From Fidelibacterota bacterium (GTDB lineage Bacteria > Fidelibacterota > Marinisomatia > Marinisomatales > TCS55): a stretch of DNA of 64,000 nt. Each line of letters opens with the position of its first letter. Within the stretch, counting starts at the first letter, position 1. The DNA lies in assembly GCA_036166415.1 (NCBI GenBank), contig JAYZHP010000081.1:688-64687 (forward strand), read 5' to 3'. This document shows, piece by piece, positions 15,782-42,823 of the stretch. Position numbers and translations under genes: made by a program. Below the pieces are notes generated by a model. That model saw only the letters and a list, made by a program, of their open reading frames with translations. It did no database searches and had not been told where the DNA came from.

Positions 15782-15791
15782 TGTGCTGCAT

Positions 15792-17420: not shown

Positions 17421-17434
17421 TAATTATTCCTTAA

Positions 17435-21855
<4,421 letters not shown>

Positions 21856-21869
<14 letters not shown>

Positions 21870-22866: not shown

Positions 22867-22883
22867 CGCAATTGAGAATGAAC

Positions 22884-23054
22884 TCAGCTAAATTTTCTAG
22901 GAATGATATAATACAGTAATGCCCCTAATAAGACCGCAAGAAAACCTTTTAATGAGCCTATGTCTTTAGATATAATTTGTGATTCTTGGAGCCAGGACAA
23001 TATGGCAAACATGATGCCGAAAGAAGATAAAAACAGCCAAATAAAATTTCTCAT
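22884..23054 (-). CDS. 56-aa two-TM micro-protein (hypothetical)
   Basis: My translation is MRNFIWLFLSSFGIMFAILSWLQESQIISKDIGSLKGFLAVLLGALLYYIIPRKFS. Its ATG overlaps the pepP TGA (ATGA). It fills an otherwise unexplained 184-nt gap inside the operon. Confidence 0.35.
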   Translation of the reverse strand: MRNFIWLFLSSFGIMFAILSWLQESQIISKDIGSLKGFLAVLLGALLYYIIPRKFS

Positions 23055-24669: not shown

Positions 24670-25914
24670 ATGCATCCGTTAAGAAAATTAATAATAGATG
24701 AAGAGCTGCTAGGCTCAATTGCAAAACAGTATGGAACTCCATTATACGTCTATAGTCAGGAGCGAATTGAGGATAATGTTTCTAATTTAAATAATGCGCT
24801 ATCTGCTAATTTTGAAAAATTTCATATTTGCTATGCAATCAAATCAAATAGCAATCCCCATTTGATTCGAACTATGCGCAATACATTTGGAAAAATTGGA
24901 GGTGACTGCTCTAGCCCTGGAGAAATCTATGCCGCTGAACTTTCTGGAATTGATCCTTCAGAATGTATCTATACCGGAAACTATGAATCAGAGGCTGATT
25001 TAATTGAGGCGACTCAAAAAGGGTGTAATATTAACTTGGATGATATCACTTCTCTTGAAAGGCTAAATAAAATCGGCCTTCCAGATCGAATATCTTTTAG
25101 AATGAATCCTGGTTTTGGAGGTGGATCATATTCAGGTATTATTACTGGGGGTAGGGATGCAAAGTTTGGTATTCCTTCTGAAAAAATTATCGACGCATAT
25201 AGACAAGCGCAAAATATGGGTATTAAGCGATTTGGCCTACAGTGTATGTGTGGATCAGGAAATCTAGATGAAAAGTTTTTTACTGAAGTTTTATCTGCCA
25301 TTATTGAACATGCCAAGAAAATTGAATCGTCCCTTAATATTAAGTTTGATTTCATTAGTATGGGTGGTGGTTTTGGGATTCCTTATCAAGATGATCAAAA
25401 ACCATTAGACTTTGATCAAATGTTTTCCTCTCTTTCAAAAATATTCTATTCAGCTTATCCAGATAAAGCTACAGCTCCATCCCTATGGCTAGAACCAGGA
25501 AAGTCAATTATTGCTGATGCTGGTTTTATTATTACAAAAGTAACAGGATTAAAAAATAGCTATAAAAATTTTGTTGGAATAGATGCCGGTATGGAAACGC
25601 TAATGCGCCCGGCATTATATGGTGCGCAACATCGTATATTTAAGGTTGGTAATCATGGAGATAATGAAAATACGGTTGACTTTACTGGTCAGATATGTGA
25701 AAATACAGACCGAATAGCTACTGATCGAGAATTTCCAAAGTTAAATGAAGGTGATCTTATTGCAATCATGGATACAGGAGCATACGGCTATTCTATGTCG
25801 CATAATTTCAATACCAGACCAAGAGCTGCTGAGGTTTTGTTGAATAATTCGAGCCATAAGCTTATCCGAAAAAGAGAAACAATTAACGATATTTTTTCAC
25901 ACTGCGATGTATAA
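24670..25914 (+). CDS. lysA: diaminopimelate decarboxylase family (fold-III PLP decarboxylase)
   Basis: Contains YAIKSNSNP (PLP Lys), GGGFGIPY, EPGKSIIADAG, CENTD and DTGAYGYSMSHNFNTRPRAAEV. Confidence 0.8.
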   Translation: MHPLRKLIIDEELLGSIAKQYGTPLYVYSQERIEDNVSNLNNALSANFEKFHICYAIKSNSNPHLIRTMRNTFGKIGGDCSSPGEIYAAELSGIDPSECIYTGNYESEADLIEATQKGCNINLDDITSLERLNKIGLPDRISFRMNPGFGGGSYSGIITGGRDAKFGIPSEKIIDAYRQAQNMGIKRFGLQCMCGSGNLDEKFFTEVLSAIIEHAKKIESSLNIKFDFISMGGGFGIPYQDDQKPLDFDQMFSSLSKIFYSAYPDKATAPSLWLEPGKSIIADAGFIITKVTGLKNSYKNFVGIDAGMETLMRPALYGAQHRIFKVGNHGDNENTVDFTGQICENTDRIATDREFPKLNEGDLIAIMDTGAYGYSMSHNFNTRPRAAEVLLNNSSHKLIRKRETINDIFSHCDV

Positions 25915-28342
25915 TAGATTCATATTTGTATTACTCTTTTCAGTTGCGTTAAGTCAGCAGGCGTATAAAAGTGTCCATCAAGTTGAATTGGAATACAATA
26001 ATGAAAATTTCATCGAGCCTTTCTATAAAACCTATACCGATCCAGCAGATCCCTTATCAAAGACAAAGAAAAAAATAACAAGAAAAGTATTTGGCTATCA
26101 TCCTTATTGGCAAGGAACGAAATGGCAAAATTATAATTACGATCTTCTTTCAACAATCGCGTACTTTTCAGCGGAGGCAAATGAGAATGGCGAACTAACT
26201 GATCTACATGGATGGCCAGCAATAGACCTAATCAATAAAGCTCATGAAAACGGTGTTGAAGTTGTCTTAACTGTTACTCTCTTTTCTAAAACAAAACTCG
26301 AAACATTACTTGGAAGTAGTGAAAATCAAAATCGATTGATTGATAATTTAAAATACGAAGTGGATCGTGCTGGTGCCGATGGAATAAATATCGATTTTGA
26401 ATCTTTTCCCGAATCACAAAAGTCTAACTTAATTACTTTTGTGAAAAATCTACGGACTTCCTTGCGAAGCTCTAATCCCAATGCACAGGTAACCCTTGCA
26501 ACACCTGCTGTCGATTGGAATAATGCTTGGGATTTTAATTCATTGGCAAGCGAAAGTGATGGATTATTTGTGATGGGATATGATTATCACTGGAAAGGCA
26601 GCACGCTTACCGGTCCCGTTGCTCCTCTTACAGGAGGCTCATATAATATCACAAATACAATTAATACCTATCTATCAGTTACTAACAACAATGTAAACAA
26701 AATAATACTTGGGAACCCTTATTATGGATATGAATGGCCATCTTCTTCTGGTGAAAAAGGAGCAAATACCACTGGGACTGGATCAGCCGTAGTTTTTTCT
26801 ACCGCAGAAGCTAAAGCGCTATCTTATGGTAAAAAATGGGATAACGACTCTCAAACGCCTTGGTATAGATATCAAAACCCCGATTGGTTTCAAACATGGT
26901 ATGATGATAGTCTTTCCTTATCAAAAAAATATGATTTTGTTATCTCAAAAAATCTTGGGGGAATTGGAATTTGGGCATTGGGTTATGATGATGGGTATGA
27001 TGAGTTATGGGATGCTCTCGGAGAAAAAATTGGCGTTAAGTCCGCCCCTTCAACCCCTGAAGATTTTTCTATATTAAATTTGGGTAGCGGAATTGTAAAT
27101 ATCAATTTGACAAATGATGATGCGGTTACAGAATACGAAGTTGTAGAAGTAATTTCTAATACAAATGAGAATCGTACAGTTGGGAAATTTTTAAAAAGCC
27201 CTATCCTAATTCAAGGCCTTACAGATAATACAGCCTACTATTATAAAGTAAGAGCAATCAATGAATTTGGTACAAGTGAATTTACAGAGCTGCTAGGCAC
27301 CACCCCTTCACCTTCAGGATCAAAAGCTTTAATCATTAATGGCTTTGATAGAATTTCTGGAACAACCAATTCGTTTGACTTTATCTTAGAGCATGGAAAT
27401 GCCATTTATATAAATGGCTATACCTTTGATTCTGCATCCAATGAATCTGTGATTAATGGTCTTGTCAATCTAAACGATTATGCAATTGTTGATTGGATTC
27501 TAGGTGAAGAAGGGGCTGCTACATCTTCTTTTGATGAAAAAGAAAAAATGATTGTACAGGACTATATTGTAAATGGAGGTCGCCTGTTTGTTTCGGGTTC
27601 AGAAATTGGATACGATCTAGTGGAAAAAGGAACGTTATCTGATAATAATTTTTATGAAAAAATCCTTAAATCACAGTATATAAGTGATGCAGCCGGAGAA
27701 ACAAATGGAACGTATAGCGTTGAAGGCGTTCCTAATTCATTATTTGATGGCTATTCATTCAATTTTGATAATGGAGATTTCGGAAACTATAATGTGGATT
27801 GGCCTGATGGCATTAAACCGATAGGTGACGCAGTCACCATTCTCAAATATAAAGATGTTGATTATGAGACCAAAGGTGGTGCAGGTATTGCATTTAGAGG
27901 AAATTTTTTAAATAGCAGAATACCTGGGGGTCTGGTCTATCTATCGATCGGCTTTGAAGCAATCTACCCTGAGCAAATACGGGTAGATGTAATGGGACAG
28001 ATTCTTCAATATCTAGATGCACCTATTACTTCAATTGATGAGGATTATCCAGTAGTCCCAGATGGCTTAAATATAACTGCATTATATCCAAATCCTTCAA
28101 ATAGCTCTATTTCTATTGAGTTTCAGGTGCGTGAATTATCACCAATTGCATATCTCACTATAACAGATTTAATGGGTCGGGAGGTATTTAAAATGTCTGC
28201 GCTGTCACTTCCCGCAAGAATTCAGCGATTTAATTGGAATGGATTGATGAGAGATGGCAATAAAGCTCCATCAGGCATCTATATGGTTTCCCTTTCACAG
28301 GGAAAGGAAATCGTTAACAAAAAATTCACGTTATTAAAATAA
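25907..28342 (+). CDS. secreted GH18-family hydrolase with FN3 domain, an unassigned alpha/beta domain and a T9SS C-terminal sorting domain
   Basis: It has a signal peptide and the GH18 catalytic motif DGINIDFE (aa 158-165). An FN3-like segment spans aa ~380-467. The C-terminal ALYPNPSNSSISIEF...GIYMVSL...KFTLLK is a typical type-A T9SS CTD. Confidence 0.8.
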   Translation: MYNRFIFVLLFSVALSQQAYKSVHQVELEYNNENFIEPFYKTYTDPADPLSKTKKKITRKVFGYHPYWQGTKWQNYNYDLLSTIAYFSAEANENGELTDLHGWPAIDLINKAHENGVEVVLTVTLFSKTKLETLLGSSENQNRLIDNLKYEVDRAGADGINIDFESFPESQKSNLITFVKNLRTSLRSSNPNAQVTLATPAVDWNNAWDFNSLASESDGLFVMGYDYHWKGSTLTGPVAPLTGGSYNITNTINTYLSVTNNNVNKIILGNPYYGYEWPSSSGEKGANTTGTGSAVVFSTAEAKALSYGKKWDNDSQTPWYRYQNPDWFQTWYDDSLSLSKKYDFVISKNLGGIGIWALGYDDGYDELWDALGEKIGVKSAPSTPEDFSILNLGSGIVNINLTNDDAVTEYEVVEVISNTNENRTVGKFLKSPILIQGLTDNTAYYYKVRAINEFGTSEFTELLGTTPSPSGSKALIINGFDRISGTTNSFDFILEHGNAIYINGYTFDSASNESVINGLVNLNDYAIVDWILGEEGAATSSFDEKEKMIVQDYIVNGGRLFVSGSEIGYDLVEKGTLSDNNFYEKILKSQYISDAAGETNGTYSVEGVPNSLFDGYSFNFDNGDFGNYNVDWPDGIKPIGDAVTILKYKDVDYETKGGAGIAFRGNFLNSRIPGGLVYLSIGFEAIYPEQIRVDVMGQILQYLDAPITSIDEDYPVVPDGLNITALYPNPSNSSISIEFQVRELSPIAYLTITDLMGREVFKMSALSLPARIQRFNWNGLMRDGNKAPSGIYMVSLSQGKEIVNKKFTLLK

Positions 28343-29611
28343 ATGAAGCGAATCTTTTTTATTTTTCTAGCTCTTATTGTTAGTTGCTCTCAACAAACAA
28401 AATCAATTCACCAGGTTGAGCTAGAATCAAAAAAAGATGATCCTAGAATTAATTTATCAAAAATACAGGTTGGATTAGATGTGCTTCTCAATGAAAGAAT
28501 TGATTTAATCAAAAATAAATCTATCGGATTAGTAACAAATCACTCAGGTGTAGATGCGGCTGGTACCCCAAATTACGAACGCCTGATGAATCAAAAAGAT
28601 GTCAGTATTAAAATAATATTTTCTCCTGAACATGGCCTATTTGGTGAAGCTGCTGCTGGTGAAAAAATTAATTATGACGGACAAGTTAAATCCCTTCCTG
28701 AAGTTGTCAGTCTATATGGAAGTAATCGCAAACCTACTGAAGGGCAAATGAAGGGTTTGGATATTATTCTCTATGATATTCAGGATGTTGGAGCACGATT
28801 CTATACCTATATTACTACATTGGGATTGGTTATGGAAAGCGCATCAAATGCTGGCGTGGAAGTGATTGTTCTTGATAGGCCAAACCCAATTACGGGGGAA
28901 TCCATTGAAGGTCCTATTCTTGATTTAAAGTTTCAAACTTTCGTAGGATATTATCCTATCCCAATCCGTTATGGATTAACGGTTGGTGAGTTAGCATATA
29001 TGATCAATGGTGAAGAATGGATTGAAAATCAACCAAAACTTCAAGTGATAAAGATGAAGGGCTGGAAAAGAAATCTCTGGTACGATGAAACAACTCTACC
29101 ATGGGTCAAGCCATCGCCAAATATTCCTGATATAAATACTGCTATTATTTACCCTGGAATGTGCTTGCTTGAAGCTACTAATGTCAGCGAAGGAAGAGGA
29201 ACAGAAAAGCCATTTAAGCGGTTTGGTGCACCATGGATAAACAAACAAGATTTAACCATAGAATTAAACAAGCTTAATTTGCCTGGCGTTGTTTTTAAGC
29301 CAGTTAGATTCATACCTAGCCCAATCAAAGGAATGGCAAATAATCCTAAATATAAAAACCAGGTATGTCATGGTGCAGAGATTATAATAACAGACCGTAA
29401 TAAGTACAAAAGCATTGCAACAGGCATGGAAATAATTAATATGATTAAAGAAAAATATCCAAATCAGTTTAAACTAAAGAATTCTGGGATTAATCGTTTA
29501 TGGGGAAATGCTGAATTTTCTGAACAAATTGCTTCTGACAATACGAATCAATTTAATATACCAATTGAAAAATATAAGAATACTTCAAGGCAATACTGGA
29601 TTTATGAATAA
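28343..29611 (+). CDS. namZ: DUF1343 / NamZ-like exo-beta-N-acetylmuramidase lipoprotein
   Basis: Lipobox IVSC. The IGLVTNHSGVD, DIQDVGARFYTYI, VLDRPNP and EGRGT blocks are characteristic of DUF1343. Confidence 0.75.
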   Translation: MKRIFFIFLALIVSCSQQTKSIHQVELESKKDDPRINLSKIQVGLDVLLNERIDLIKNKSIGLVTNHSGVDAAGTPNYERLMNQKDVSIKIIFSPEHGLFGEAAAGEKINYDGQVKSLPEVVSLYGSNRKPTEGQMKGLDIILYDIQDVGARFYTYITTLGLVMESASNAGVEVIVLDRPNPITGESIEGPILDLKFQTFVGYYPIPIRYGLTVGELAYMINGEEWIENQPKLQVIKMKGWKRNLWYDETTLPWVKPSPNIPDINTAIIYPGMCLLEATNVSEGRGTEKPFKRFGAPWINKQDLTIELNKLNLPGVVFKPVRFIPSPIKGMANNPKYKNQVCHGAEIIITDRNKYKSIATGMEIINMIKEKYPNQFKLKNSGINRLWGNAEFSEQIASDNTNQFNIPIEKYKNTSRQYWIYE

Positions 29612-31001
29612 AAAGCTAGCTATGATTATAGCTCTAGTGCTTTGTAGCTGCTATGCGCCTCCACAGGTCTATAAATCCAGCGGTTTCCCCTCTATAAGAA
29701 ATTCTATAAATGAATTAATCGATACTTCTAAATTGGAAACAAATATTGGAATAAAAGCTGTTGATCTTAATTCCGGTAAAACAATTTTTGAATTGAATAG
29801 TAATTCCCTATTTAATCCTGCTAGTAATAATAAACTATACACATCTCTTTCAGCGATATCAATTCTAGATACTAGCTACACTTTTAAGACATCTATTTAT
29901 AAAGATGAAAATAAAATCTACCTAGTTGGTGGTGGTGATCCTGACTTTGCATTAACAGAGCTTGACTCATTGGCTAGTATCGTAGCAAAACAATATCCCT
30001 CAATAAACGAGTTAATTCTAGATGATACAATTATGGATTCACTTACATACGGCCCCGGTTGGATGTGGGATGAAGGCGATGAATGGTATTCCGCGCATAT
30101 TAGTGCACTTTCCGTTAATGATAATTGCATTGATTTCATAATCAATCCAAGCACAACCGGTAATCTTATCAATTTAGAAACATATCCCAAATCAAACTAT
30201 TATACTATTATTAATCAGGCTTATACAGTAAATGATACAGCAAATTTTGAAAAGCTAAAAATAACTCGTGATTGGAAAAATAATAAAAATTCATTTTTAA
30301 TAACTGGAAGTGTAATAGATACAGCATCAACAGATACCATTATTAGAAATATAGATGAACCAACCAACTATACTGGATATCTGTTCCGAGAAATGTTACT
30401 AAAAAATGGGGTGAAAATAAAAAAACTATATAAAGGTATCTATCTTAATTCAGGAGTAGAAATTGCAACGCATTACTCAAAATCCCTACCCTCAATCCTT
30501 GAGAATCTTATGGTTGAAAGTGATAACCTTACTGCAGAATTACTAGTAAAAACAATAGGCTATGAATCAAATGGAAGCCAAGGAAATTGGCAAAATGGAT
30601 TGCATGCGATAAAGGTTTTCTTGAATGATAAAACAAATTTGGATACGACTAGTTTTTCCATTAGCGATGGATCTGGCGTATCAAGATATAATTACTCAAG
30701 TGCAAATAATTTTACCTCATTATTAAGCTGGGCGTATCATCAGCCAGAAATCAGAAATAAGCTATTAAATATTTTGTCGTTCACTGGTGAAAATGGAACC
30801 TTGATTGATAGAAATTTACCGAATGGTATTTATGCTAAGACGGGTTCATTATCTGGAGTTACAACTTTCTCTGGTTATATATTGAACTCAGATAACAAGC
30901 CAATAGCATTTTCTATATTAATGAATGGATATAAAGGATCATCTGCCCCATTCCGTGAACTGCAAGACAAGATTGTAAGTCAGCTAGCAGGAATAAAATG
31001 A
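29604..31001 (+). CDS. dacB: D-alanyl-D-alanine carboxypeptidase/endopeptidase (PBP4, S13)
   Basis: Contains SxxK (ASNNK), SDN (VESDN) and KTG (AKTGSL). I place the start at MNKKLAMIIALVLCSC (a lipoprotein signal), which overlaps the namZ stop. The ORF-track start at 29508 adds a non-signal extension. Confidence 0.85.
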   Translation: MNKKLAMIIALVLCSCYAPPQVYKSSGFPSIRNSINELIDTSKLETNIGIKAVDLNSGKTIFELNSNSLFNPASNNKLYTSLSAISILDTSYTFKTSIYKDENKIYLVGGGDPDFALTELDSLASIVAKQYPSINELILDDTIMDSLTYGPGWMWDEGDEWYSAHISALSVNDNCIDFIINPSTTGNLINLETYPKSNYYTIINQAYTVNDTANFEKLKITRDWKNNKNSFLITGSVIDTASTDTIIRNIDEPTNYTGYLFREMLLKNGVKIKKLYKGIYLNSGVEIATHYSKSLPSILENLMVESDNLTAELLVKTIGYESNGSQGNWQNGLHAIKVFLNDKTNLDTTSFSISDGSGVSRYNYSSANNFTSLLSWAYHQPEIRNKLLNILSFTGENGTLIDRNLPNGIYAKTGSLSGVTTFSGYILNSDNKPIAFSILMNGYKGSSAPFRELQDKIVSQLAGIK

Positions 31002-31906
31002 TTCGCAATAATTTATATCTGACGATCTTCTTATTATTGATAAGCTGCTCTCCTAGTCCTATTGAAAATCCATATATTATCGTTCTGGGCACCACTCAAG
31101 ATGGAGGAGCTCCCCAAGCGGGATGTAATAAGAAGTGTTGTATTAATAGATGGTCAAATCCAAAAAAAGAATTTTTTGTTACCTCTCTTGGTATCGTTGA
31201 CCCTAATTCAAATGAGGCTTGGATGATTGAGGCTACGCCCGACTTTCCACGCCAGCATAACCAACTTACAACAGAAAATAAGATCAAAGGGATATTTATC
31301 ACCCATGCACACATAGGGCACTATTCAGGATTGATGCACTTAGGGAGGGAAACAATGGGATATAAAAATATGCCATTATATACAGCACCCAAAATGACGA
31401 AATATCTACAAACCAATGGTCCATGGAGCCAGTTAATTGATCTAAATAACGTTAAAATAAATAAATTAAAAGAGAATAAGGAAATTATTCTAAATAAAAG
31501 ACTTACAATCAAGCCATTTAAAGTGCCTCATCGAGATGAATTTTCCGAAACGGTTGGATTCCAAATCAATGGACCTAGCAAATCATTAATTTTTATCCCA
31601 GATATCGATAAATGGAATAAATGGGATATCGATGTTTTGGGAACGATTAAAGAGAATGATTATGCCTTGCTTGATGGAACCTTTTATAATGAAGGTGAAT
31701 TGCCGGGCAGAAATATGTCTGAAATTCCTCATCCATTTATTATTGAATCAATTGAATACTTCAAAGAAATCAAAGATCGGGTTGATATAAATTTTATTCA
31801 TTTTAATCATACCAATCCTTTGCTTGACCCTGCTGCTGATAAACGGAAAAAATTAAAGGAACAAGGTTATGGAGCGACAACCATCAATCAACGATTTGAA
31901 TTATAA
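30998..31906 (+). CDS. MBL-fold metallo-hydrolase lipoprotein, PqqB-like
   Basis: Lipobox LISC. VLGTTQDGGAPQAGCNKKCC resembles the PqqB N-terminus, and THAHIGHYSG is the HxHxxH metal motif. Confidence 0.6.
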   Translation: MIRNNLYLTIFLLLISCSPSPIENPYIIVLGTTQDGGAPQAGCNKKCCINRWSNPKKEFFVTSLGIVDPNSNEAWMIEATPDFPRQHNQLTTENKIKGIFITHAHIGHYSGLMHLGRETMGYKNMPLYTAPKMTKYLQTNGPWSQLIDLNNVKINKLKENKEIILNKRLTIKPFKVPHRDEFSETVGFQINGPSKSLIFIPDIDKWNKWDIDVLGTIKENDYALLDGTFYNEGELPGRNMSEIPHPFIIESIEYFKEIKDRVDINFIHFNHTNPLLDPAADKRKKLKEQGYGATTINQRFEL

Positions 31907-33294: not shown

Positions 33295-33298
33295 AAAT

Positions 33299-34156: not shown

Positions 34157-37059
34157 CGATCCCGTAGTTCAAGATCTTCATTTTTAGCCGTAAAGCCTAG
34201 AGACTCATATACTGATGAATGTAATCGCTGTCTCCAGTCAAAATAGCTCTTTTTCTTATAGGATCGGTCAGGGTGAACTGCATTTGTAAGTAAAATGACA
34301 AAAATTTGGTTTTCTTTATCAATCCATAGTGAGGTACCTGTATATCCTGTATGCCCAAAACTATCTTTTGATAAATATACACCTCCTGAAGATTTTCCAG
34401 ATGGAGTATCCCATCCAATACCATAAGAATTACCCTCTACTTCATTTGACCTCGTTGTAAACTGAATAATTGTCTCTTCCATAAAAATTCTCTTCCATCC
34501 ATATCGGCCACCATTCAGCATCATTTGTGAAAAAATAGCCAGGTCCTTTGCCGTAGAAAAAAGACCAGCATGCCCAGCAACACCACCTAAGCTATGCGCA
34601 TTTTCATCATGAACAAATCCTCTAATCAATTTTTGGTGAAATTTGCTATTTTCAGTTGGAACAATTCGCTGAAGTTTTTCCATAGAAGGGTTATAAAATG
34701 TAGAATTCATTCCAAGCGGTTTGAACACTACCGAATCAACATATTCATCCAATGATTGCTGCGATGCAACCTCAACAACTTTACCTAGTACGATTAAACC
34801 AATATCTGAGTATATGAGTGTGTCGCTGGATGCTCTTTGAGGTTCCGTATTAAAAATAGAGTCCAACCGAGTCTGCTGATTTCCATCCATTAAGTAGTAC
34901 TGTTTAAATGGTGGAAGGCCTGCTGTATGTGTTATGAGCTGCTGAATCGTAGTGTTTTCTTTTTGTCTAAAAAACTTATCTTGCTGTCCTCTGAATTCTG
35001 GAACAAAATCAATAACTCTATCGCTAAGTTTAAGTTTTTTTTCTTCTACAAGATTCATGATAGCTGATGTAGTTGATATTACTTTCGTAATTGAAGCTAG
35101 ATCAAAAATATTACCCCTTGCTGTAGGATTACTCTTTAAATAGGTATGATAACCAAATGCTTCGTGTAAAAAGATTTTACCATTTTTTGCAGCAAGAATA
35201 ACGCCACCAGGAAAAGCTGAATCTTGCACCGCATCATTTAGCATTATTGTAATTGGTGCGATATCTACTCCAATTTCATTTGCCCTAATTGTCATTAATT
35301 CAGTACCTGGTTCCAATGGATTTTCTTGTTCTACCCACGGTTGCGACTCTATATATAACCCTGAGCCTCTATTGGCGATATCTGGTATTGTAACAGGTAA
35401 TATGCCGCTTGCATTAGATTTGCCCATTAATAATTTTGCTACAGCGTCTTGCATAATTCCGCTTCCTTTATATGCACATATATATACAGGCGCACTAGGA
35501 AAATCTTGAATTAAATATGGACTACCAAAGCTTGTCACCACTACCTTACTGCTTTTATTAATTAATCTATTAATTAAATCGGCCTCAACTTCTGGTAAAA
35601 AAATATTATCCTTCCATTCTACAGGGTTAGCAAATGCATTAACAAAAACTATTTTTTCATCTGGAATTTGTTTGAATATATAATCTGCGATTGCCAAGCT
35701 ATCAGATTTGTCAATTTGAAATGTTTTTATCTTTCGCTTACTTTGTCGAAGTTGCTTAGTTAAGCTGCTTTCAGTGTGATTGTTTGGCCCATCATAAAGA
35801 TCAATTACATATATATCTTCATTAAGCTCAGGATTTAATGGCAAAATATTATTATCATTCTTTACCACCGTAAGTGATCTTGATGCTATTTCATCTGCGG
35901 TTTCGAAATTAATCTTTTTGCCCATATCCAAGTGAGTTTTATCAGCTGATATCGCTGGATCTTTATGCAGTCCAACTTTTTCCTTCATCTTTAAAATTTT
36001 AATGACCGATTGATTAATTCTCTGCTCAGTAATGATTCCGTCCAGCACCGCACGCTCTACCAGATCGATTGACTCTTTCATTTTGTTGTTTTGAATAATG
36101 ATATCAGAACCAGCATTAATGGTAGCGATTAAAGCGTAAGCGTCTGAATAATTTTTTATTATCCCTCCCATGCCCATTGCATCGGTGATTATTGCCCCAT
36201 CAAAACCAAGATTATTTTTTAATATATCTTTTATCCAAAATGAGGAGAGCGTAGCTGGGTCATCAGCATTTTTTTGATAATCAGGAGCGTTAACATGGGC
36301 AACCATAATGGCATCGACTCCTGCATTAATTGCATTTCTAAATGGAGGAATTTCCACAGTCCATAGTCTGGAAGAGTCACTTGGTATTTGAGCTAGCGCA
36401 GAGTGAGAATCTGTTTCTGTATCACCGTGTCCAGGAAAATGCTTTGCGGTCGCTAGCATGTTATAGTCATGAAGGCCTTTTATGAACTCTTTTGAATAGC
36501 GATAAACTGAATCCGGATCCTCACCAAATGATCGCGTATTGATAATCGGATTTTTAGGATTATTATTAACATCAACCACAGGAGCTAAATTAAAATGTAT
36601 TCCAACTGCTCGACTTTCGACAGCAGAGATTCTTCCTGCTTCATAGGCATATTGTGGGTCACCTGTTGCTGCAATTGCCATCATGGGTGGCAATGTTACA
36701 GCGCCACTATACCTTCGACCCAGGCCAGATTCTATATCAGCCTCAACTAACATAGGGACCTTTGATGCTTTTTGCATTTTATTTAAAAGAGTTAATGCGC
36801 TGCCTGCTTCTCCAAACCAAATATGCAAAACCCCAATTCCATCCGATGATATGAGCTTTTCAATCTCTTTCCATTCATCGCTTTCATAGTTCATGAATTT
36901 CATATTCATTCTATAGACCATCATTTGCGCAATCTTCTCTCTTAATGATAATTTTTTAAGTGTAGATTCTGCCCATGATGATTCTAAAGAGGAAATTGTT
37001 CCAGCTCCAGAGCAGGTCAAAAATATAATCGAGAAAAGTAGAGTAAATATCCTAAACAT
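34141..37059 (-). CDS. GH3 beta-N-acetylhexosaminidase fused to a beta-lactamase-fold serine hydrolase, lipoprotein
   Basis: Lipobox LTC. The GH3 NagZ motif KHFPGHGDTETDSH is present, followed by the GH3 C-terminal domain and then a serine-hydrolase module with SITK (SxxK) and HTGYTG. Confidence 0.85.
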   Translation of the reverse strand: MFRIFTLLFSIIFLTCSGAGTISSLESSWAESTLKKLSLREKIAQMMVYRMNMKFMNYESDEWKEIEKLISSDGIGVLHIWFGEAGSALTLLNKMQKASKVPMLVEADIESGLGRRYSGAVTLPPMMAIAATGDPQYAYEAGRISAVESRAVGIHFNLAPVVDVNNNPKNPIINTRSFGEDPDSVYRYSKEFIKGLHDYNMLATAKHFPGHGDTETDSHSALAQIPSDSSRLWTVEIPPFRNAINAGVDAIMVAHVNAPDYQKNADDPATLSSFWIKDILKNNLGFDGAIITDAMGMGGIIKNYSDAYALIATINAGSDIIIQNNKMKESIDLVERAVLDGIITEQRINQSVIKILKMKEKVGLHKDPAISADKTHLDMGKKINFETADEIASRSLTVVKNDNNILPLNPELNEDIYVIDLYDGPNNHTESSLTKQLRQSKRKIKTFQIDKSDSLAIADYIFKQIPDEKIVFVNAFANPVEWKDNIFLPEVEADLINRLINKSSKVVVTSFGSPYLIQDFPSAPVYICAYKGSGIMQDAVAKLLMGKSNASGILPVTIPDIANRGSGLYIESQPWVEQENPLEPGTELMTIRANEIGVDIAPITIMLNDAVQDSAFPGGVILAAKNGKIFLHEAFGYHTYLKSNPTARGNIFDLASITKVISTTSAIMNLVEEKKLKLSDRVIDFVPEFRGQQDKFFRQKENTTIQQLITHTAGLPPFKQYYLMDGNQQTRLDSIFNTEPQRASSDTLIYSDIGLIVLGKVVEVASQQSLDEYVDSVVFKPLGMNSTFYNPSMEKLQRIVPTENSKFHQKLIRGFVHDENAHSLGGVAGHAGLFSTAKDLAIFSQMMLNGGRYGWKRIFMEETIIQFTTRSNEVEGNSYGIGWDTPSGKSSGGVYLSKDSFGHTGYTGTSLWIDKENQIFVILLTNAVHPDRSYKKKSYFDWRQRLHSSVYESLGFTAKNEDLELRDRWKRE

Positions 37060-37120
37060 AATATGATAAAAATTAACTTTACTTCCCTTATTAAATCTTT
37101 AACTTTATTAAATTATTAAT

Positions 37121-38173
37121 ATGAAAAATATATCCCCTAATGTGCCAGAATTAATCGGTCAAATGATAATGGTTGGAATGAAAGGCCATGATGACGCTGC
37201 AGCAAAAGATTTCTTTGAATTAAATCAAGGTCATCAAATTGGCGGAATCATACTATACGATGAAGATATCACAATCTCTCCACCCTCACTTCATAATATA
37301 AGATCTCCAAAACAATTGCAGAAATTAACATCTTGCCTTCAGCGCTTAAGCGATATTCCTTTATTGATTGGAATAGACCAAGAAGGTGGAAAGGTAAGTA
37401 GATTAAAAGCAAAGTACGGGTTTGATTCTTCAATTAGCTGGGAAAATTTGGGAAAGATTAATGACCTTGAACAAACCGCTAGTGAAGCGCTTCGTACAGC
37501 TAAAACCCTAAAGGAAAATGGAATAAATCTGAATTTTGCACCTGTATTGGATCTATTATTATCAAAAGATAATATCATTATACAAAAGCAGCGATCATTT
37601 TCCTCAAATCCACATAATGTTGCTGATCATGCAAAAATAGTCATTGATACATATTTAGATCATAATATAATTGCTACAGCAAAACATTTTCCAGGCCAAG
37701 GAAGTTCAGTTGGTGACACCCATGAAGGATGGGTAGATGTCTCTGAATCATGGTCAGAAAAAGAGCTTTTACCCTATCAAAATCTTATTGATTCAGGTAC
37801 TATTTCAGCAATTATGACTTCGCATTTATTTAATAAATACCTTGATGATAAATATCCAGCAACACTATCAAAAACAATCATAACAGATTTATTAAGAAAA
37901 AAAATGAATTTCACTGGCGTGATAATTAGCGATGACCCCCAAATGAAGGCATTGACAAATAAATATAGATTAGAAGAAATAATTGAACTAATGATCAATG
38001 CTGGTGTGGATATTTTCTGCTTTGGAAATAACTTAGAATACGATCCGGACATAGTAATAAAAATACATCATATTATTGATGATTTATTGAAAAGAAATAG
38101 AATAACAATTTCAAGGTTAGTAAAATCTTATGATAGAATAATTAATCTAAAATCTATGATTGGAATTAAATGA
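37121..38173 (+). CDS. nagZ: beta-N-acetylhexosaminidase (GH3, NagZ)
   Basis: GIDQEGGKVSRL and KHFPGQGSSVGDTHEG are present. It has no signal peptide. Confidence 0.85.
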   Translation: MKNISPNVPELIGQMIMVGMKGHDDAAAKDFFELNQGHQIGGIILYDEDITISPPSLHNIRSPKQLQKLTSCLQRLSDIPLLIGIDQEGGKVSRLKAKYGFDSSISWENLGKINDLEQTASEALRTAKTLKENGINLNFAPVLDLLLSKDNIIIQKQRSFSSNPHNVADHAKIVIDTYLDHNIIATAKHFPGQGSSVGDTHEGWVDVSESWSEKELLPYQNLIDSGTISAIMTSHLFNKYLDDKYPATLSKTIITDLLRKKMNFTGVIISDDPQMKALTNKYRLEEIIELMINAGVDIFCFGNNLEYDPDIVIKIHHIIDDLLKRNRITISRLVKSYDRIINLKSMIGIK

Positions 38174-39177
38174 AAATACTTGGAATTGATGGGGGTGCCT
38201 CAAAAGTATCGGGAGCTATTATCGAACGAATAAATGAAGATACTTTTGAGATATCAGGAAAAATAATTGAACTACACTATAAAGATCATCCATCCTTTGA
38301 TCATTCCTTTCAACCTGTTGATTTAACAGAACAATTAAATGATGCATTGATATTGCAAAAAGAAAAAGACCAAGGAGGTGTATATATAGAAACATTGTTA
38401 AATGTCATTAAACAATTAGGTGGAAATACAGATTCATTTATTTCTATTGCTATGCCTGGAATTAAATCAAATGATAAAAAAGGTATTCAAGTGATGTCTA
38501 ATGGGCCAAGATTGCCTGATCTATGTAAAAAAATCCAAAATGCGATTGAACCTTCTAGTAATATTTCAAATATTGAAAGTGATTCTGATATGTGTGCATG
38601 GGGTGAAGAATTTGCAATAAACGGTTTTTTCAGAGACATAAATAATGCCTACTATATGGGTGGCGGTACTGGAATCGCAGATGGAATGAAATTAAATAAT
38701 CAATTGCTGAGTTTTGATAGCCAATCAAGCTGGATTGCTAAAACTTGGGAGCTAAAATCAAGCAATGGAAGTTCTATTGAGTCTCTTATATCAATGCCAG
38801 CAATCAATAGTCTTTCAGAAAAATCTGTCATATCTATCAGTAAGATTTTAGCATTGTTGATTTTTGAAAGAGTCCGGACAATTTATGAAGGTTGGGATAA
38901 TCAGTTTATTATAGAAAGAAAGATTGATAAATCACATTCTTATCATGGAATATTATTGGATCGAATAGTTATTGGGCAGAGATTATCACAATATCTTAAC
39001 TCCAATGTTGGAATTAATATCTTTCAACAAGTAAAAACTAGCTTTAATGAACTTTGCGCACATCATGGTGGAGCTATTAAAGAGCATTTTTTAAATGATG
39101 ATAGGATTGTATTGTCAAGCTTAAGAGAAGCTCCCATTATTGGATTAGGATCAAAAGCATGGATGGAAATTTCATGA
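38170..39177 (+). CDS. BadF/BadG/BcrA/BcrD-type ATPase (GlcNAc/MurNAc kinase-like)
   Basis: ILGIDGGASK phosphate-1 motif and YMGGGTGIADG. Its start overlaps the nagZ stop (ATGA). Confidence 0.6.
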   Translation: MKILGIDGGASKVSGAIIERINEDTFEISGKIIELHYKDHPSFDHSFQPVDLTEQLNDALILQKEKDQGGVYIETLLNVIKQLGGNTDSFISIAMPGIKSNDKKGIQVMSNGPRLPDLCKKIQNAIEPSSNISNIESDSDMCAWGEEFAINGFFRDINNAYYMGGGTGIADGMKLNNQLLSFDSQSSWIAKTWELKSSNGSSIESLISMPAINSLSEKSVISISKILALLIFERVRTIYEGWDNQFIIERKIDKSHSYHGILLDRIVIGQRLSQYLNSNVGINIFQQVKTSFNELCAHHGGAIKEHFLNDDRIVLSSLREAPIIGLGSKAWMEIS

Positions 39178-40418
39178 CTTCTAAAATCGCTCCATCTAAA
39201 GAACCTATTATCAGAGTAGGTATAATCCTGCCAGCAGATAATATTAAAAATATCGAGCTTGTTTTATCAGAAAGTGATTCTTTTGAAATTGAGACGAATG
39301 AGAAGATTTACCCTTCTTGTAAAAATAATTCTAATATAACAATCTCTCTTAATGATGAGAAGATGAGGATAAATGAATTAGGCGTTATAACAAAAAAAAT
39401 AGTAATAAATCCAACCATTGATTCAAGCAAAAATTTTTCCATGATCAAGGAAGTGGTAGCTGGTAGAGGATTTCATTGGGAAAAAGTAGTCGATATAAAA
39501 TATTGGGGCAGTCTTGAATTTGTGATCATTGAAAATAATATAATGGTCATAAATGAATTAAAACTAGAAGACTATCTAAAATGTGTTGCAACTTCAGAGA
39601 TGAGCCAATATTGCCCGAAAGAATTTCTCATCTCACAAACAATAGTTGCTCGCTCATGGCTACTTGCAAGCTCTGAGCAAAAACATGAATCGCAAGGCTT
39701 TGATGTATGCAATGATGATTGCTGCCAAAGATATCAAGGTATGGATAATTGTACTATTGAATCAATAGAAGCTGCTAATCAATCACATGGTAAGGTATTA
39801 ATTTTTGATAATTCTATTTGTGATACTAGATACTCAAAATCCTGTGGCGGTAAAACAGAGAATTATGAAAATGTCTGGTCCGGCAAGCCAGTTCCATATC
39901 TGATTTCAATTAATGATTGTGATGAACAAGGAGTTAATTATTGCAATCCATCACAATTTCCTGAGAAATCAATTACAAGATTTATTGGATCTGTAGATGA
40001 AGATCTAGAGTATTATCATTGGAATCATGAAGTTAAAAATCAATCAATTATAAAGCATCTAAAGAATTATTATGACACGTATGCAAAAGCGATTGTAAAT
40101 ATTATAGCTTTGGAAATAGGAAAATCAGGCAGGATATATAACTTAGATGTTATTTACATAGATCAAGAAAATAAGGAAAAGAGCTTGATTGTTGAATCGG
40201 AATATAAAATTAGAGACCTTTTATCAGATTCTTTCCTATTCAGCTCTGCATTTACTATAGAAAAAAAAGAGCAAGGATTCAATCTAAATGGCAAAGGATG
40301 GGGACATGGAGTTGGTTTGTGCCAGATTGGTGCTTTGAGCATGGCATTATCAGGAAAAAATTCAAATCAAATACTTAGTCATTATTATCCGGGAACAGAA
40401 ATAATAAATATATATTAG
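39174..40418 (+). CDS. SpoIID/LytB domain protein
   Basis: Contains RGFHWEK, ARSWLLAS, CQRYQG and GWGHGVGLCQIGA blocks. I prefer the ATG at 39174 (ATGA overlap with the kinase stop). Confidence 0.75.
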   Translation: MTSKIAPSKEPIIRVGIILPADNIKNIELVLSESDSFEIETNEKIYPSCKNNSNITISLNDEKMRINELGVITKKIVINPTIDSSKNFSMIKEVVAGRGFHWEKVVDIKYWGSLEFVIIENNIMVINELKLEDYLKCVATSEMSQYCPKEFLISQTIVARSWLLASSEQKHESQGFDVCNDDCCQRYQGMDNCTIESIEAANQSHGKVLIFDNSICDTRYSKSCGGKTENYENVWSGKPVPYLISINDCDEQGVNYCNPSQFPEKSITRFIGSVDEDLEYYHWNHEVKNQSIIKHLKNYYDTYAKAIVNIIALEIGKSGRIYNLDVIYIDQENKEKSLIVESEYKIRDLLSDSFLFSSAFTIEKKEQGFNLNGKGWGHGVGLCQIGALSMALSGKNSNQILSHYYPGTEIINIY

Positions 40419-41705
40419 ATGAATAGCTATTCAAAAACAAAAGGATGGTCTTGGGTTCCTAGTCTATATTTTGCAGAAGGACTGCCATATGCATTCGTGA
40501 TGATTGTATCTGTAGTATTATATAAAAACCTAAATATATCCAATACAGATATAGCTTTATATACCAGTTGGCTTTATTTACCATGGGTTATTAAGCCGTT
40601 GTGGAGTCCGTTCGTGGATATAATTAAAACAAAGCGATATTGGATAGTGCTTACACAGCTCATTATTGGAGCAAGCCTAGCAGGTGTTGCTTTCGCGATA
40701 CCTACTACTAATACACTACAATATACATTAGCATTCTTTTGGCTCATGGCATTTAGCTCATCAACTCATGATATCGCAGCTGATGGATTTTACATGCTAG
40801 GATTATCCAGCCATGATCAATCCTGGTTTATTGGAATTAGAAATACTTTTTATCGGTTTGCGATTCTTTTTGGACAGGGAATTATTATCATTATTGCTGG
40901 TCAATTAGAGAATATCACTGGAAATCTTAAACTTGCTTGGTCATTAGTTTTTGGAATTTTATCAGGGCTATTTATCCTTTTAGCTATCTATCATAAATGG
41001 GTTTTGCCTCAACCGAAAAATGATCAAGAAGAATTCAATATTTCTAAGAAGGATATTATAAAAGAATACTTTGAGATTATTAAAGCTTATTTTAAAAAGC
41101 CTCAAATTTTACTGATTATTTCTTTTATCTTACTCTATAGATTCGGAGAAGCGCAGTTGGTAAAAATCGCTCCATTATTCATGCTTGATTCCCTTGAATC
41201 AGGAGGATTGGGTCTATCAACATCAGAATATGGGTTCATTTATGGCACTCTAGGCGTAGCAATGCTAACCCTGGGAGGTATTGTTGGTGGATTTTTTATA
41301 GCAAAGAATGGATTAAAGTATTGGATAATTTGGATGGCGCTAGCAATGAAATTACCTGATCTAGTTTATATCTATATGGCCTATTCGCAACCAGAGAATA
41401 TGACACTTATAGGTTTTCTCGTATCTGTAGAACAGTTTGGTTATGGATTTGGCTTTACTGCTTATCTACTTTATATGATGATGATTGCTGATGGTAATCA
41501 TAAAACTGCGCATTACGCAATATGCACAGGGATCATGGCGTTAGGTATGATGGTTCCAGGTATGTTTAGTGGAGCAATTCAAGAAAGCTTAGGTTATACA
41601 AACTTTTTTTACTGGGTTATGTTTTCCACCATCCCAGGATTAATTTTGATTAAATTTATTTCTATTGATTCAAGTTTTGGATTAAATAAGGACTCAAATA
41701 AATGA
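40419..41705 (+). CDS. ampG: AmpG-family MFS muropeptide permease
   Basis: 428 aa with about 12 TM segments. The N-terminal SWVPSLYFAEGLPYAFV is typical of the AmpG/PAT family. Confidence 0.75.
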   Translation: MNSYSKTKGWSWVPSLYFAEGLPYAFVMIVSVVLYKNLNISNTDIALYTSWLYLPWVIKPLWSPFVDIIKTKRYWIVLTQLIIGASLAGVAFAIPTTNTLQYTLAFFWLMAFSSSTHDIAADGFYMLGLSSHDQSWFIGIRNTFYRFAILFGQGIIIIIAGQLENITGNLKLAWSLVFGILSGLFILLAIYHKWVLPQPKNDQEEFNISKKDIIKEYFEIIKAYFKKPQILLIISFILLYRFGEAQLVKIAPLFMLDSLESGGLGLSTSEYGFIYGTLGVAMLTLGGIVGGFFIAKNGLKYWIIWMALAMKLPDLVYIYMAYSQPENMTLIGFLVSVEQFGYGFGFTAYLLYMMMIADGNHKTAHYAICTGIMALGMMVPGMFSGAIQESLGYTNFFYWVMFSTIPGLILIKFISIDSSFGLNKDSNK

Positions 41706-42823
41706 ATAAGATAAATAGAATATTAGCTCTAGATACTTTTCGTGGTGCAACTATTGCATTGATGATTATAGTAAACAACCCAGGTACTTGGTCACATGTC
41801 TATGGTCCACTTAGACACGCTCAATGGCATGGATGCACTTTGACAGATTTAGTTTTTCCATTTTTTCTTTTTATTGTTGGCATAGCAATGAGTTTTTCAT
41901 TTAAAAAGTATGATATTTGTAAAACCGGTCCATTATTTAATAAGATAGTATTTCGAACAATATCAATATTCTCCCTTGGACTGATTTTGAATGCATTTCC
42001 ATTTATTAGACAAGATTGGGATTGGTCTTCATTTAGAATTTTAGGAGTATTGCAAAGAATTGCTCTTGCTTATTTTATTGCTGCATTTATTATTCTAAGA
42101 GCAAATGTAAAGGGATTGGTTCAAATATCATTTTTTATATTAATACTATATTGGATAGCTTTATATGCTTATGGGCTAATAAGCGGTCTTGACCCATATG
42201 CCTTGAATTCTAATTTACCTCTTGTTATAGATAGAATAATTCTTGGAGAGAGTCATTTGTATGGAGGAACTGGAATACAATTTGACCCAGAAGGCCTCCT
42301 AAGCACATTTCCATCCGCAGTTACTGTAATTATAGGGTTCCTCGTAGGTACAATGATTAAAACAACAAAAGATCACAATGATAATTGCCAGAGAATGCTC
42401 ATTTTGGGCTCTCTAATGATTATTTTGGGATGGATTTGGGGATTTATGTTTCCTATCAACAAGCAATTATGGACTAGTTCTTACGTTCTCTACACTGCAG
42501 GAATAGGAACGATTATATTGTCAACAATGATATGGATAATTGATATTTTGAAATACAATAAATGGGCATTCCCATTTATTGTATTCGGATCAAATTCTAT
42601 TTTTATATATGCCTTATCAGGTATTTGGGCGAAGATTCTATTGAAAATTCGGTTTAGCCTAAATGGTGATGAGATTTCAGGTTATTCATATTTATATCAA
42701 ACAGTCTTTTTACCAATAGCTGGAAATACTAATGGGTCTCTTTTATTTGCAATCTTTCACGTATTTGCATTTTGGTTAATTTTATTTTGGATGTATAAAA
42801 AGAAGATCTTTATCAAGCTTTAA
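41702..42823 (+). CDS. HGSNAT-like transmembrane acyltransferase (DUF1624/DUF5009 family)
   Basis: N-terminal RILALDTFRGATIALMIIVNNPGTW and GVLQRIALAY. Polytopic, 373 aa. Confidence 0.65.
   Translation: MNKINRILALDTFRGATIALMIIVNNPGTWSHVYGPLRHAQWHGCTLTDLVFPFFLFIVGIAMSFSFKKYDICKTGPLFNKIVFRTISIFSLGLILNAFPFIRQDWDWSSFRILGVLQRIALAYFIAAFIILRANVKGLVQISFFILILYWIALYAYGLISGLDPYALNSNLPLVIDRIILGESHLYGGTGIQFDPEGLLSTFPSAVTVIIGFLVGTMIKTTKDHNDNCQRMLILGSLMIILGWIWGFMFPINKQLWTSSYVLYTAGIGTIILSTMIWIIDILKYNKWAFPFIVFGSNSIFIYALSGIWAKILLKIRFSLNGDEISGYSYLYQTVFLPIAGNTNGSLLFAIFHVFAFWLILFWMYKKKIFIKL

Follow-up and report, generated by a model that had tools for sequence, protein, structure and literature searches.

An 18 kb locus of 13 genes, at positions 24670-42823 of a 64,000-nt stretch of contig JAYZHP010000081.1 (the whole stretch being referred to here as the window), is, judged from sequence, probably a peptidoglycan (PG) salvage locus of a marine aerobic SAR406 bacterium, in which five lineage-specific genes are added to a conserved divergent core of eight. 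The genes lie in three blocks, on the plus strand (24670-31906), the minus strand (37059-31888) and the plus strand again (37121-42823), and all 13 open reading frames (ORFs) were reproduced at the coordinates and on the strands given in a first-pass annotation of the same DNA. That annotation proposed that glycan cleavage, stem-peptide cleavage, import and cytoplasmic processing of PG are all represented, and family assignments together with conserved synteny agree with it. The closest proteins and loci all come from marine metagenome-assembled genomes (MAGs) of Candidatus Marinimicrobia/Neomarinimicrobiota (SAR406, now Fidelibacterota). Among the other genes of the window are those for cytochrome c oxidase subunits, haem A/O synthases, SCO1 and cytochrome b; on the strength of cytochrome c oxidase and haem A synthesis the lineage is taken to be aerobic.

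Nearly all the domain calls of the first-pass annotation were reproduced with Pfam and NCBIfam (Table 1), the label given to the sugar kinase being the exception. NCBIfam cutoffs were exceeded by LysA and PBP4 (equivalog models), by the SpoIID/LytB protein and by the type IX secretion system (T9SS) tail models, and Pfam thresholds were passed for NamZ_N/C, glycoside hydrolase families GH18 and GH3, beta-lactamase, AmiA-like/DUF1460, the sodium:solute symporter (SSS) and the metallo-beta-lactamase (MBL) fold. Both GH3 domains, PBP4, the beta-lactamase-fold domain, GH18 and the SpoIID-like protein retain their active-site motifs. Inspection of signals and lipoboxes divides the products into one T9SS cargo (GH18), five predicted lipoproteins (NamZ, PBP4 from the 29604 start, MBL, DUF1460 and the GH3 fusion), three polytopic membrane proteins (SSS, AmpG and the NagX-like protein) and four signal-less proteins (LysA, NagZ, the kinase and the SpoIID-like protein).

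Table 1. Features of the locus and of the gene run upstream of it, in window coordinates. E, expectation value; MFS, major facilitator superfamily; AF2, AlphaFold2.
Feature	Position	Strand	Evidence or content
Upstream run members	9654-24415	-	NTP-transferase, galactokinase-like GHMP kinase, SSS, GH109, proline-racemase-family (hydroxyproline-epimerase-like), SSS, GH2 beta-galactosidase lipoprotein, class-III aminotransferase, APH-family kinase, Xaa-Pro aminopeptidase
LysA, diaminopimelate decarboxylase, cytoplasmic	24670-25914	+	TIGR01048 equivalog 373.8 bits (cutoff 297.9); Pfam Orn_Arg_deC_N, Orn_DAP_Arg_deC
GH18 glycosidase, exported	25907-28342	+	PF00704 E 4e-38; TIGR04183 37 bits (cutoff 23); PF18962 30 bits (cutoff 27)
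NamZ (GH171) exo-beta-N-acetylmuramidase, predicted lipoprotein	28343-29611	+	NamZ_N 270 bits, NamZ_C 151 bits; lipobox IVSC
PBP4-type (S13) DD-carboxypeptidase/endopeptidase, predicted lipoprotein	29604-31001	+	TIGR00666 211 bits (cutoff 107.8); SxxK (SNNK), SxN (SDN), KTG
MBL-fold (PqqB-like) predicted lipoprotein	30998-31906	+	PF12706 E 8e-20; PqqB model 99 bits (cutoff 245); top PDB match PqqB E 3e-7
SSS importer, 468 aa	31888-33294	-	PF00474 E 1e-30
DUF1460/AmiA-like NlpC/P60 amidase, predicted lipoprotein	33299-34156	-	PF07313 E 5e-20; catalytic Cys region aligns with DUF1460 structure 2im9
Fusion lipoprotein, two-domain YbbD-type NagZ (GH3) + PBP4B/AmiE-like beta-lactamase-fold domain	34141-37059	-	GH3_N 275 bits, GH3_C, beta-lactamase (PF00144) 185 bits
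Divergent spacer, AT-rich, 61 bp	37060-37120		Between the two central blocks (core operons); sequence inspection
NagZ-type GH3 beta-N-acetylglucosaminidase, single-domain, cytoplasmic	37121-38173	+	PF00933 E 3e-56; NF003740 155 bits (cutoff 207); no hydrophobic N-terminus
Divergent ROK-like (ASKHA) sugar kinase, cytoplasmic	38170-39177	+	GIDGG phosphate-1 motif; AF2 model; Foldseek
SpoIID/LytB-family protein, no signal peptide	39159-40418	+	TIGR02669 189 bits (cutoff 83)
AmpG-family MFS permease, GlcNAc-(anhydro)MurNAc-type fragments	40419-41705	+	TIGR00901 185 bits (cutoff 350), full-length coverage
NagX-like (HGSNAT-like) polytopic membrane acetyltransferase	41702-42823	+	NF046061 NagX_SO_3504 E 4e-54, residues 23-372 of 373, 184 bits (cutoff 480)

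The case for association of the genes comes from gene order. The window proteins were compared by tblastn with eight genome loci (L001-L008), and gene order was also read in the further loci L009 and L011-L013. The complete 13-gene order is present in L004, and L001-L003 are colinear over 9-12 genes up to the contig end, with fusion protein identities of 76-96%. Past these close relatives only eight genes are conserved, as a divergent core in which the fusion, DUF1460 and SSS genes face those for NagZ, the kinase, the SpoIID-like protein, AmpG or an SSS, and the NagX-like protein. Core order is retained down to about 55% fusion protein identity (L005-L007, L013). L005, at 60%, has MBL-NagX-AmpG-SpoIID-kinase-NagZ facing fusion-DUF1460, and L013 has the full core, SSS-AmiA-fusion facing NagZ-kinase-SpoIID-SSS-NagX. 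L006 and L007 (58-59%) have NagX-SSS(607 aa)-SpoIID-kinase followed by a family 2 glycosyltransferase (GT2), all facing the fusion gene; DUF1460 is next in L006, and L007 ends inside the fusion gene. In L008, a distant Marinimicrobia locus (53%), the order is DUF1460-GH18(T9SS)-esterase-fusion-SSS.

Parts of the core recur in other combinations. The Bacteroidetes MAG locus L011 has kinase-SpoIID-AmpG-NamZ, L009 has NamZ-GT2-kinase-SpoIID-AmpG, and L012 (1-15608) has GT2-kinase-SpoIID-AmpG-NagX-M19 dipeptidase, facing genes for an esterase/beta-lactamase fusion, SSS, GNAT, AnmK and a polysaccharide deacetylase; in this L012 fusion the beta-lactamase domain shares 55% identity with the C-terminal end of the window fusion. 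The SpoIID-like gene is directly upstream of ampG in the window and in L002-L005, L009, L011 and L012. The AmpG position is taken by an SSS of about 600 aa in L006, L007 and L013, and the NagX-like gene is always 3' of a transporter gene (L003-L007, L012, L013). The SSS gene adjoins DUF1460 or the fusion in L001, L002, L004, L008 and L013, at 62-97% identity. The LysA-GH18-NamZ-PBP4-MBL block is lineage-specific, and in other lineages its members NamZ, MBL and T9SS GH18 again appear together with the core. LysA opens the same operon in L001, L002 and L004, and in L006 is 6 kb off on the opposite strand; MBL is kept with the cluster in L001, L002 and L004 and adjoins NagX in L005. The conservation of gene order places the association of the cluster beyond chance. 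A GT2 gene (~510-530 aa) precedes the kinase-SpoIID module at L006:7475-9001, L009:6905-8494 and L012:7247-8794 (57% identity between L006 and L009), and is absent from the window.

The first-pass annotation also described three tightly packed transcription units. The packing was confirmed, with overlaps of 4-19 nt or gaps of 0-4 nt between neighbours, and the unit structure is deduced solely from the gene overlaps. Taking overlaps as negative, the junctions are -8, 0, -8 (with PBP4 starting at 29604) and -4 nt in the first plus-strand block, of which LysA is the first gene, its end overlapping the GH18 start by 8 nt; -16 and +4 nt in the minus-strand block; and -4, -19, 0 and -4 nt in the second plus-strand block. 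Both outer junctions are convergent overlaps, of 19 nt between the MBL and SSS genes and of 4 nt between the NagX-like gene and an EamA gene. The 61-bp spacer is presumed to be a shared control region of the two core operons. There is no regulator gene within the 13-gene cluster, and scans for sigma-70 consensus promoters and for terminators gave sites not above shuffled sequence, promoters of the type used in the Fibrobacteres-Chlorobi-Bacteroidetes (FCB) group not being modelled by the scan.

The GH18 protein has a signal-peptidase-I-type N-terminal signal, MYNRFIFVLLFSVALS/QQ, followed by a barrel (~residues 61-361), an fn3-like module, a 250-aa module of no known family and a T9SS C-terminal sorting domain, which together mark it as T9SS type A cargo. 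Its catalytic motif, DGINIDFE, retains D-x-E. Pfam scans found neither LysM nor another peptidoglycan-binding domain in the protein, and a scan of the isolated 250-aa module gave no match. Among solved structures the nearest relatives of the GH18 are 4wiw, B. subtilis YdhD (3cz8), SleL (4s3j) and YaaH (4s3k), at E 2e-21 to 5e-14 and ahead of most chitinases. SleL and YaaH are GH18 N-acetylglucosaminidases of B. cereus and B. megaterium that cut spore-cortex PG. The first-pass annotation had considered that the enzyme might be a strict chitinase; its proximity to YdhD, SleL and YaaH leans towards PG, though not decisively.

NamZ requires strands ending in N-acetylmuramic acid (MurNAc), and an endo-N-acetylglucosaminidase would make such ends (PMC8054146); the GH18 and NamZ genes are adjacent. 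The only PDB matches of the window NamZ are the two B. fragilis NamZ orthologues, 4k05 and 4jja. The mature N-termini of GH18 and NamZ share SQQ..KS(V/I)HQVELE, placed right behind the signal peptide or lipobox (25907-25990 and 28343-28420). The likeness is at the protein level, DNA alignment giving no recent duplication, and the motif could be a sorting or surface-exposure signal.

Three further predicted lipoproteins would act on the peptides and on the glycan. For PBP4 the true start is probably 29604 and not the longest-ORF start, 29508, because the lipoprotein signal MNKKLAMIIALVLCSC arises from 29604. The characterised DUF1460 member, B. uniformis AmiA, cleaves GlcNAc-1,6-anhydroMurNAc-peptide (PMC4600125), where GlcNAc is N-acetylglucosamine. 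The fusion protein carries a lipoprotein signal, and the top PDB matches of its GH3 part are GH3 N-acetylglucosaminidases, including B. subtilis YbbD/NagZ (E ~1e-60). Both GH3 domains of the cluster carry KHFPGxGxxxxD[ST]H, the signature with its Asp-His reading KHFPGHGDTETDSH in the fusion and KHFPGQGSSVGDTH in the cytoplasmic NagZ. The C-terminal domain of the fusion has the motifs SITK, YSD and HTG, and its best NCBIfam match is PBP4B (207 bits, below the cutoff of 385). PBP4B is presumably linked to AmiE, which has a beta-lactamase fold. The protein is therefore read, from its sequence, as NagZ and AmiE in one lipoprotein, with a putative amidase activity. It has more than 7800 homologues, and 120 out of 120 among the matches listed share the identical architecture.

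LysA, MBL, SSS, the kinase and the NagX-like protein are linked to PG by context only. The SSS has MurNAc, GlcNAc and wall-derived peptides or amino acids as candidate substrates. AmpG finds only AmpG muropeptide permeases among PDB sequences, over its full length and at E 3e-18. No Pfam match was obtained for the NagX-like protein, which by sequence is a family-level relative only, below the equivalog cutoff; a role in acetylation is suggested by this similarity to HGSNAT-like NagX and by its fixed place after an importer.

The kinase had been called BadF-type in the first-pass annotation, a label that did not hold: it has no PF01869 match and its fold is ROK-like. At default thresholds it matches nothing in Pfam or NCBIfam, PF00480 (ROK) being marginal (E 0.058, 13 bits). 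The AF2 model has a pLDDT of 92, and the top Foldseek matches are ROK hexokinases and NagK/NanK kinases, at a TM of about 0.6; the Zn-binding CxCGxxGC motif of ROK proteins was not seen in the sequence. On the model, the protein appears to be a divergent offshoot of the ROK kinases, and probably an N-acetylhexosamine 6-kinase. BadF/MurK-type and AnmK-type kinases were considered and rejected, given the ROK-like fold and the lack of a sequence match; phmmer against the solved T. forsythia MurK structures in the PDB likewise gave no match.

These assignments suggest the following route. The T9SS would carry the YdhD/SleL-like GH18 to the cell surface or into the medium, where, as an endo-N-acetylglucosaminidase, it would nick glycan strands and leave non-reducing MurNAc ends. 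The PBP4 lipoprotein would cut DD-cross-links, and the DUF1460 amidase and the AmiE/PBP4B-like domain would remove stem peptides. The fused GH3 NagZ domain and NamZ could then alternately release GlcNAc and MurNAc from the non-reducing end, like NagZ, AmiE and NamZ of B. subtilis. Disaccharide-type fragments would be imported by AmpG, and a monomer or peptide product by the SSS. The NagX-like protein may re-acetylate de-N-acetylated amino sugars with cytoplasmic acetyl-CoA. Inside the cell the single-domain NagZ would take off GlcNAc, the SpoIID-like enzyme would cleave remaining MurNAc-GlcNAc bonds, and the ROK-like kinase would phosphorylate the freed N-acetylhexosamine. LysA, by inference only, could convert salvaged meso-diaminopimelate to lysine. 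The order of the reactions, like the substrates assigned to the SSS, MBL, NagX-like protein and kinase, is that expected of the families and their setting.

The closest parallels are found in two organisms. In Tannerella forsythia, which like the window organism belongs to the FCB group, lytB-ampG-ybbC(namZ1)-murTKQ are co-transcribed, and the bacterium, a MurNAc auxotroph, grows on PG and muropeptides through AmpG (PMC5388701, PMC7670621, bioRxiv 10.1101/2021.12.02.470905). Its operon Tanf_08345-08385 (gtf-gtf-lytB-ampG-namZ1-murT-murK-murQ) and similar B. fragilis clusters resemble the window in having a SpoIID/LytB gene just upstream of ampG and namZ in the locus. The two unexplained gtf genes upstream of lytB are echoed by the GT2 upstream in L006, L007, L009 and L012. 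The window locus differs in that murT, murK and murQ are absent and the kinase has no detectable similarity to solved MurK, and it has in addition the T9SS GH18, PBP4, DUF1460, NagZ-AmiE-like fusion, cytoplasmic NagZ, NagX, MBL, SSS and LysA. In B. subtilis (murQ-murR-murP-amiE-nagZ-namZ), NagZ, AmiE and NamZ jointly digest intact PG from the non-reducing end (PMC8054146). The window has the same three exo-activities by family assignment, namely a NagZ of the two-domain YbbD type, a putative amidase with a beta-lactamase fold, and NamZ. However, a single lipoprotein holds both its NagZ and its AmiE-like domain, import is through AmpG and SSS instead of the MurP phosphotransferase system, MurQ and MurR are absent from the locus, and the setting is a Gram-negative periplasm or cell surface. 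By analogy, then, the locus may work like a merger of the B. subtilis NagZ/AmiE/NamZ exo-digestion with the lytB-ampG-namZ salvage of T. forsythia and Bacteroides.

A third parallel lies within the phylum. Fidelibacter multiformis IA91 (class AB16), the sole isolate of the phylum, is an obligate scavenger reported to meet its needs for wall building, carbon and energy from exogenous muropeptides, and this reliance reportedly traces to the phylum ancestor and was inherited by anaerobic lineages (PMC11652737). IA91 is a subsurface anaerobe without PG synthesis, whereas the window organism is of an aerobic marine lineage. The concept is thus already known, since the first cultured member of the phylum lives on scavenged muropeptides and the strategy is known in related bacteria; what is new is this architecture in an aerobic marine lineage. 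In an earlier survey of SAR406 genomes, GH23, GH103 and CBM50 were the only families listed for PG degradation, and GH18 was assigned to the breakdown of chitin (PMC5596340).

Several points weigh against the salvage interpretation. AmpG, the cytoplasmic NagZ, the PBP4B-like domain and the NagX-like protein all fall below curated NCBIfam cutoffs, though these are best matches with full-length alignments. MurQ, AnmK, AmpD, LdcA, Mpl, NagA and NagB were not recognised in the window plus flanks of 8-10 kb (~82 kb), so that the pathway is incomplete in cis; the first-pass annotation's statement that MurQ and AnmK are not visible is correct for the same span, in which there is also no other SIS/MurQ-type protein. 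The later steps (MurQ, AnmK, NagA/B or AmgK/MurU) must be encoded elsewhere in the genome. There is no SusC/TonB-type outer-membrane importer in the cluster, MBL and SSS are without an assignable substrate, and LysA may be a housekeeping gene and perhaps a mere neighbour. Finally, the GH18 of L008 (7109-14357) is a true chitinase type with a T9SS tail (PDB chitinase matches at E 1e-60) and occupies an equivalent place; different GH18 subfamilies therefore occupy the same neighbourhood, and chitin sugars may share parts of the route.

The strongest alternative is that the locus only recycles the cell's own wall turnover, as in E. coli and Pseudomonas, with no foraging on foreign PG. AmpG and a cytoplasmic single-domain NagZ with KHFPGxGxxxxD(S/T)H are indeed the classic recycling pair of the AmpG-NagZ-AmpD-AnmK-(MurQ or AmgK/MurU) pathway, in model organisms the products handled by PBP4 and DUF1460 come from the cell's own wall turnover (PMC4600125), and an outer-membrane uptake system is not in the cluster. 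Nevertheless we consider housekeeping alone unlikely. The T9SS-exported GH18 would act outside the outer membrane, and NamZ needs MurNAc-terminated strands, which endo-N-acetylglucosaminidases produce but lytic transglycosylases, the main enzymes of Gram-negative turnover, do not (PMC8054146). A full set of exo-acting enzymes able to digest intact sacculi exceeds what recycling needs, the neighbouring genes are also catabolic or scavenging, and related FCB bacteria with the same core are reported to grow on exogenous PG (PMC7670621, PMC11652737). As to differences in layout, the genes are scattered in E. coli and Pseudomonas and clustered here, AmpD, LdcA, Mpl and AnmK are missing in cis from the window, and in the window organism lipoprotein amidases seem to take off the peptides ahead of import. 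It is plausible that foreign wall material is foraged, and preferring this to pure housekeeping is reasonable given the exported GH18, the needs of NamZ and the life on exogenous muropeptides reported for the sole isolate (PMC11652737). Probably the locus serves both, recycling its own wall and harvesting foreign wall debris.

It is very improbable that the locus is mainly for the use of chitin or GlcNAc-containing glycans, with GH18 as a chitinase, the GH3 enzymes as hexosaminidases, the kinase as a GlcNAc kinase, NagX alongside and the PG-type genes secondary. GH18 is the family of the classical chitinases, NagX takes its definition from GlcNAc and chitin utilisation by Shewanella (NCBIfam NF046061), NagK is among the ROK-fold kinases, and in L008 the chitinase-type GH18 stands beside DUF1460 and the fusion. 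But NamZ, DUF1460, PBP4, SpoIID/LytB and AmpG have no role in chitin breakdown, the window GH18 is nearest the PG-acting YdhD/SleL/YaaH group, and a GH20 chitobiase, a chitin-binding module, NagA and NagB are not in the cluster. The idea that three unrelated operons merely lie side by side, so that the "supercluster" is an annotation illusion in which only some genes cooperate, is likewise very improbable: the LysA-to-MBL block does join the core in close relatives only, LysA, MBL and SSS are not PG-specific by homology, and the transcription units are deduced from overlaps and not from promoter scans, but in L005-L007 and L013 the two core operons remain side by side in divergent orientation, down to about 55% protein identity, NamZ re-joins the SpoIID-AmpG module in L009, L011 and T. 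forsythia (PMC5388701), MBL shifts into the core block in L005, and a T9SS-tailed GH18 re-joins the fusion in L008.

The least expected element of the probable salvage locus is a SpoIID-type enzyme that is conserved, seems to be cytoplasmic and is linked to a novel kinase. SpoIID of Bacillus and Clostridioides and a chlamydial homologue are extracytoplasmic lytic transglycosylases acting on denuded glycan, and the window protein shares their fold, catalytic Glu and Cys/His cluster. It differs in having no signal peptide or membrane anchor, in carrying an additional N-terminal beta-rich domain (~residues 1-125) before the catalytic domain, and in being encoded in an operon with a cytoplasmic NagZ and a sugar kinase, to which it is fused in some relatives. 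The AF2 model (pLDDT 84.7) has SpoIID 5i1t (Foldseek E 3e-16) and 4rwr as its sole significant fold matches. The catalytic Glu, E147 ('SEM'), aligns with the SpoIID Glu and is invariant in 20 homologues, as is the Cys/His cluster. The N-terminus is hydrophilic and the ORF cannot be extended upstream. The window protein and 19 homologues (42-61% identity, Bacteroidetes MAG proteins among them) all lack a signal peptide and a hydrophobic N-terminus, and share the start 'M..IP..EP.(I/L)RVGIILP'.

A Pfam scan of the isolated N-terminal domain gave no match. A search with it returned 69 representative clusters, and in full-length matches the domain lies at the extreme N-terminus, with two notable exceptions. 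One, P0373 (851 aa), is a ROK-like kinase fused to the SpoIID-like protein; it represents a 13-member cluster (840-851 aa) from several independent assemblies and two NCBI MAG records (e.g. MBL7059514.1, MBC8215585.1), of other Marinimicrobia. The other, P0387 (807 aa), a singleton also from other Marinimicrobia, is a signal-less NagZ fused to the SpoIID-like protein. Fusion to an ATP-dependent kinase argues that the SpoIID-like domain is cytoplasmic, and the two fusions tie the kinase, NagZ and SpoIID-like activities to one pathway. From these sequence features the cell-wall-cutting enzyme appears to work in the cytoplasm. We know of no lytic transglycosylase characterised so far that acts other than outside the cytoplasmic membrane, and no paper was found on a cytoplasmic SpoIID-like enzyme or on the function of TfLytB. 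A role as AnmK substitute, opening the 1,6-anhydro ring, was rejected as the simple reading, because AnmK adjoins the same kinase/SpoIID-like/AmpG core in L012.

A possible, still tentative, explanation is that the kinase, the signal-less SpoIID/LytB protein and AmpG (or SSS), often with a cytoplasmic NagZ, GT2 and NagX, form an undescribed cytoplasmic branch of PG-sugar metabolism in FCB bacteria, in which a SpoIID-type lytic transglycosylase acts inside the cell. After import by AmpG and trimming by NagZ, the SpoIID-type enzyme might cleave MurNAc-beta-1,4-GlcNAc bonds of oligosaccharides, or MurNAc-GlcNAc itself. The product would be 1,6-anhydroMurNAc, the enzyme would be a cytoplasmic counterpart of NamZ, and the fused or adjacent kinase would trap the freed sugar. 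If true, TfLytB of Tannerella forsythia, so far uncharacterised, would thereby gain an assigned function.

Remains of PG (muramic acid, D-amino acids) are commonly considered to make up a considerable and slowly degraded share of the dissolved organic matter in the sea, and SAR406/Marinimicrobia are abundant in the dark ocean; to our knowledge the marine SAR406 lineages remain uncultured. A conserved locus running from external cleavage to cytoplasmic processing provides a concrete, testable genetic basis for the consumption of bacterial wall debris by SAR406, and suggests that the muropeptide scavenging of the phylum's sole isolate may extend to aerobic marine lineages. It also draws attention to three widely conserved players, the cytoplasmic SpoIID-like enzyme, the divergent ROK-like kinase and the NagX-like acetyltransferase, with equivalents in the pathogen T. 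forsythia.

Immediately before the cluster comes a run of other scavenging genes (Table 1). Its aminotransferase is translationally coupled to the APH-family kinase, and the pair matches the two halves of NF004799/PRK06148, which presumably resembles a hydroxylysine kinase with its phospho-lyase. The run looks like a catabolic block for glycoproteins or collagen-type glycopeptides. The same coupling led us to reject the APH-family kinase (21856-22866) as an AmgK; as for an AmgK/MurU pairing, the NTP-transferase (9654-10535) pairs instead with the galactokinase-like GHMP kinase. Further out, about 4-9 kb upstream of the window start (L014:528-6362), are a Peptidase_M14 protein (849 aa), a NUDIX protein, a Peptidase_S58 protein (DmpA-type aminopeptidase) and an Amidohydro_1 protein, which may handle D-amino-acid peptides or deacetylation steps.

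Close to the downstream end of the cluster, a 730-aa protein (43696-45888, minus strand) has a signal peptide, DUF5916 and a weak CBM9-like match. It keeps this position in L003 and L004, a linkage limited to close relatives, and is a candidate outer-membrane or carbohydrate-binding partner of the cluster. Elsewhere in the window, a 1013-aa multi-haem cytochrome c (59203-62244, minus strand) is encoded beside split cytochrome b genes and the cox operon, and a PAS-domain N-terminus is fused to a UbiA-family prenyltransferase (3102-4382, minus strand), an unusual sensor-enzyme architecture.

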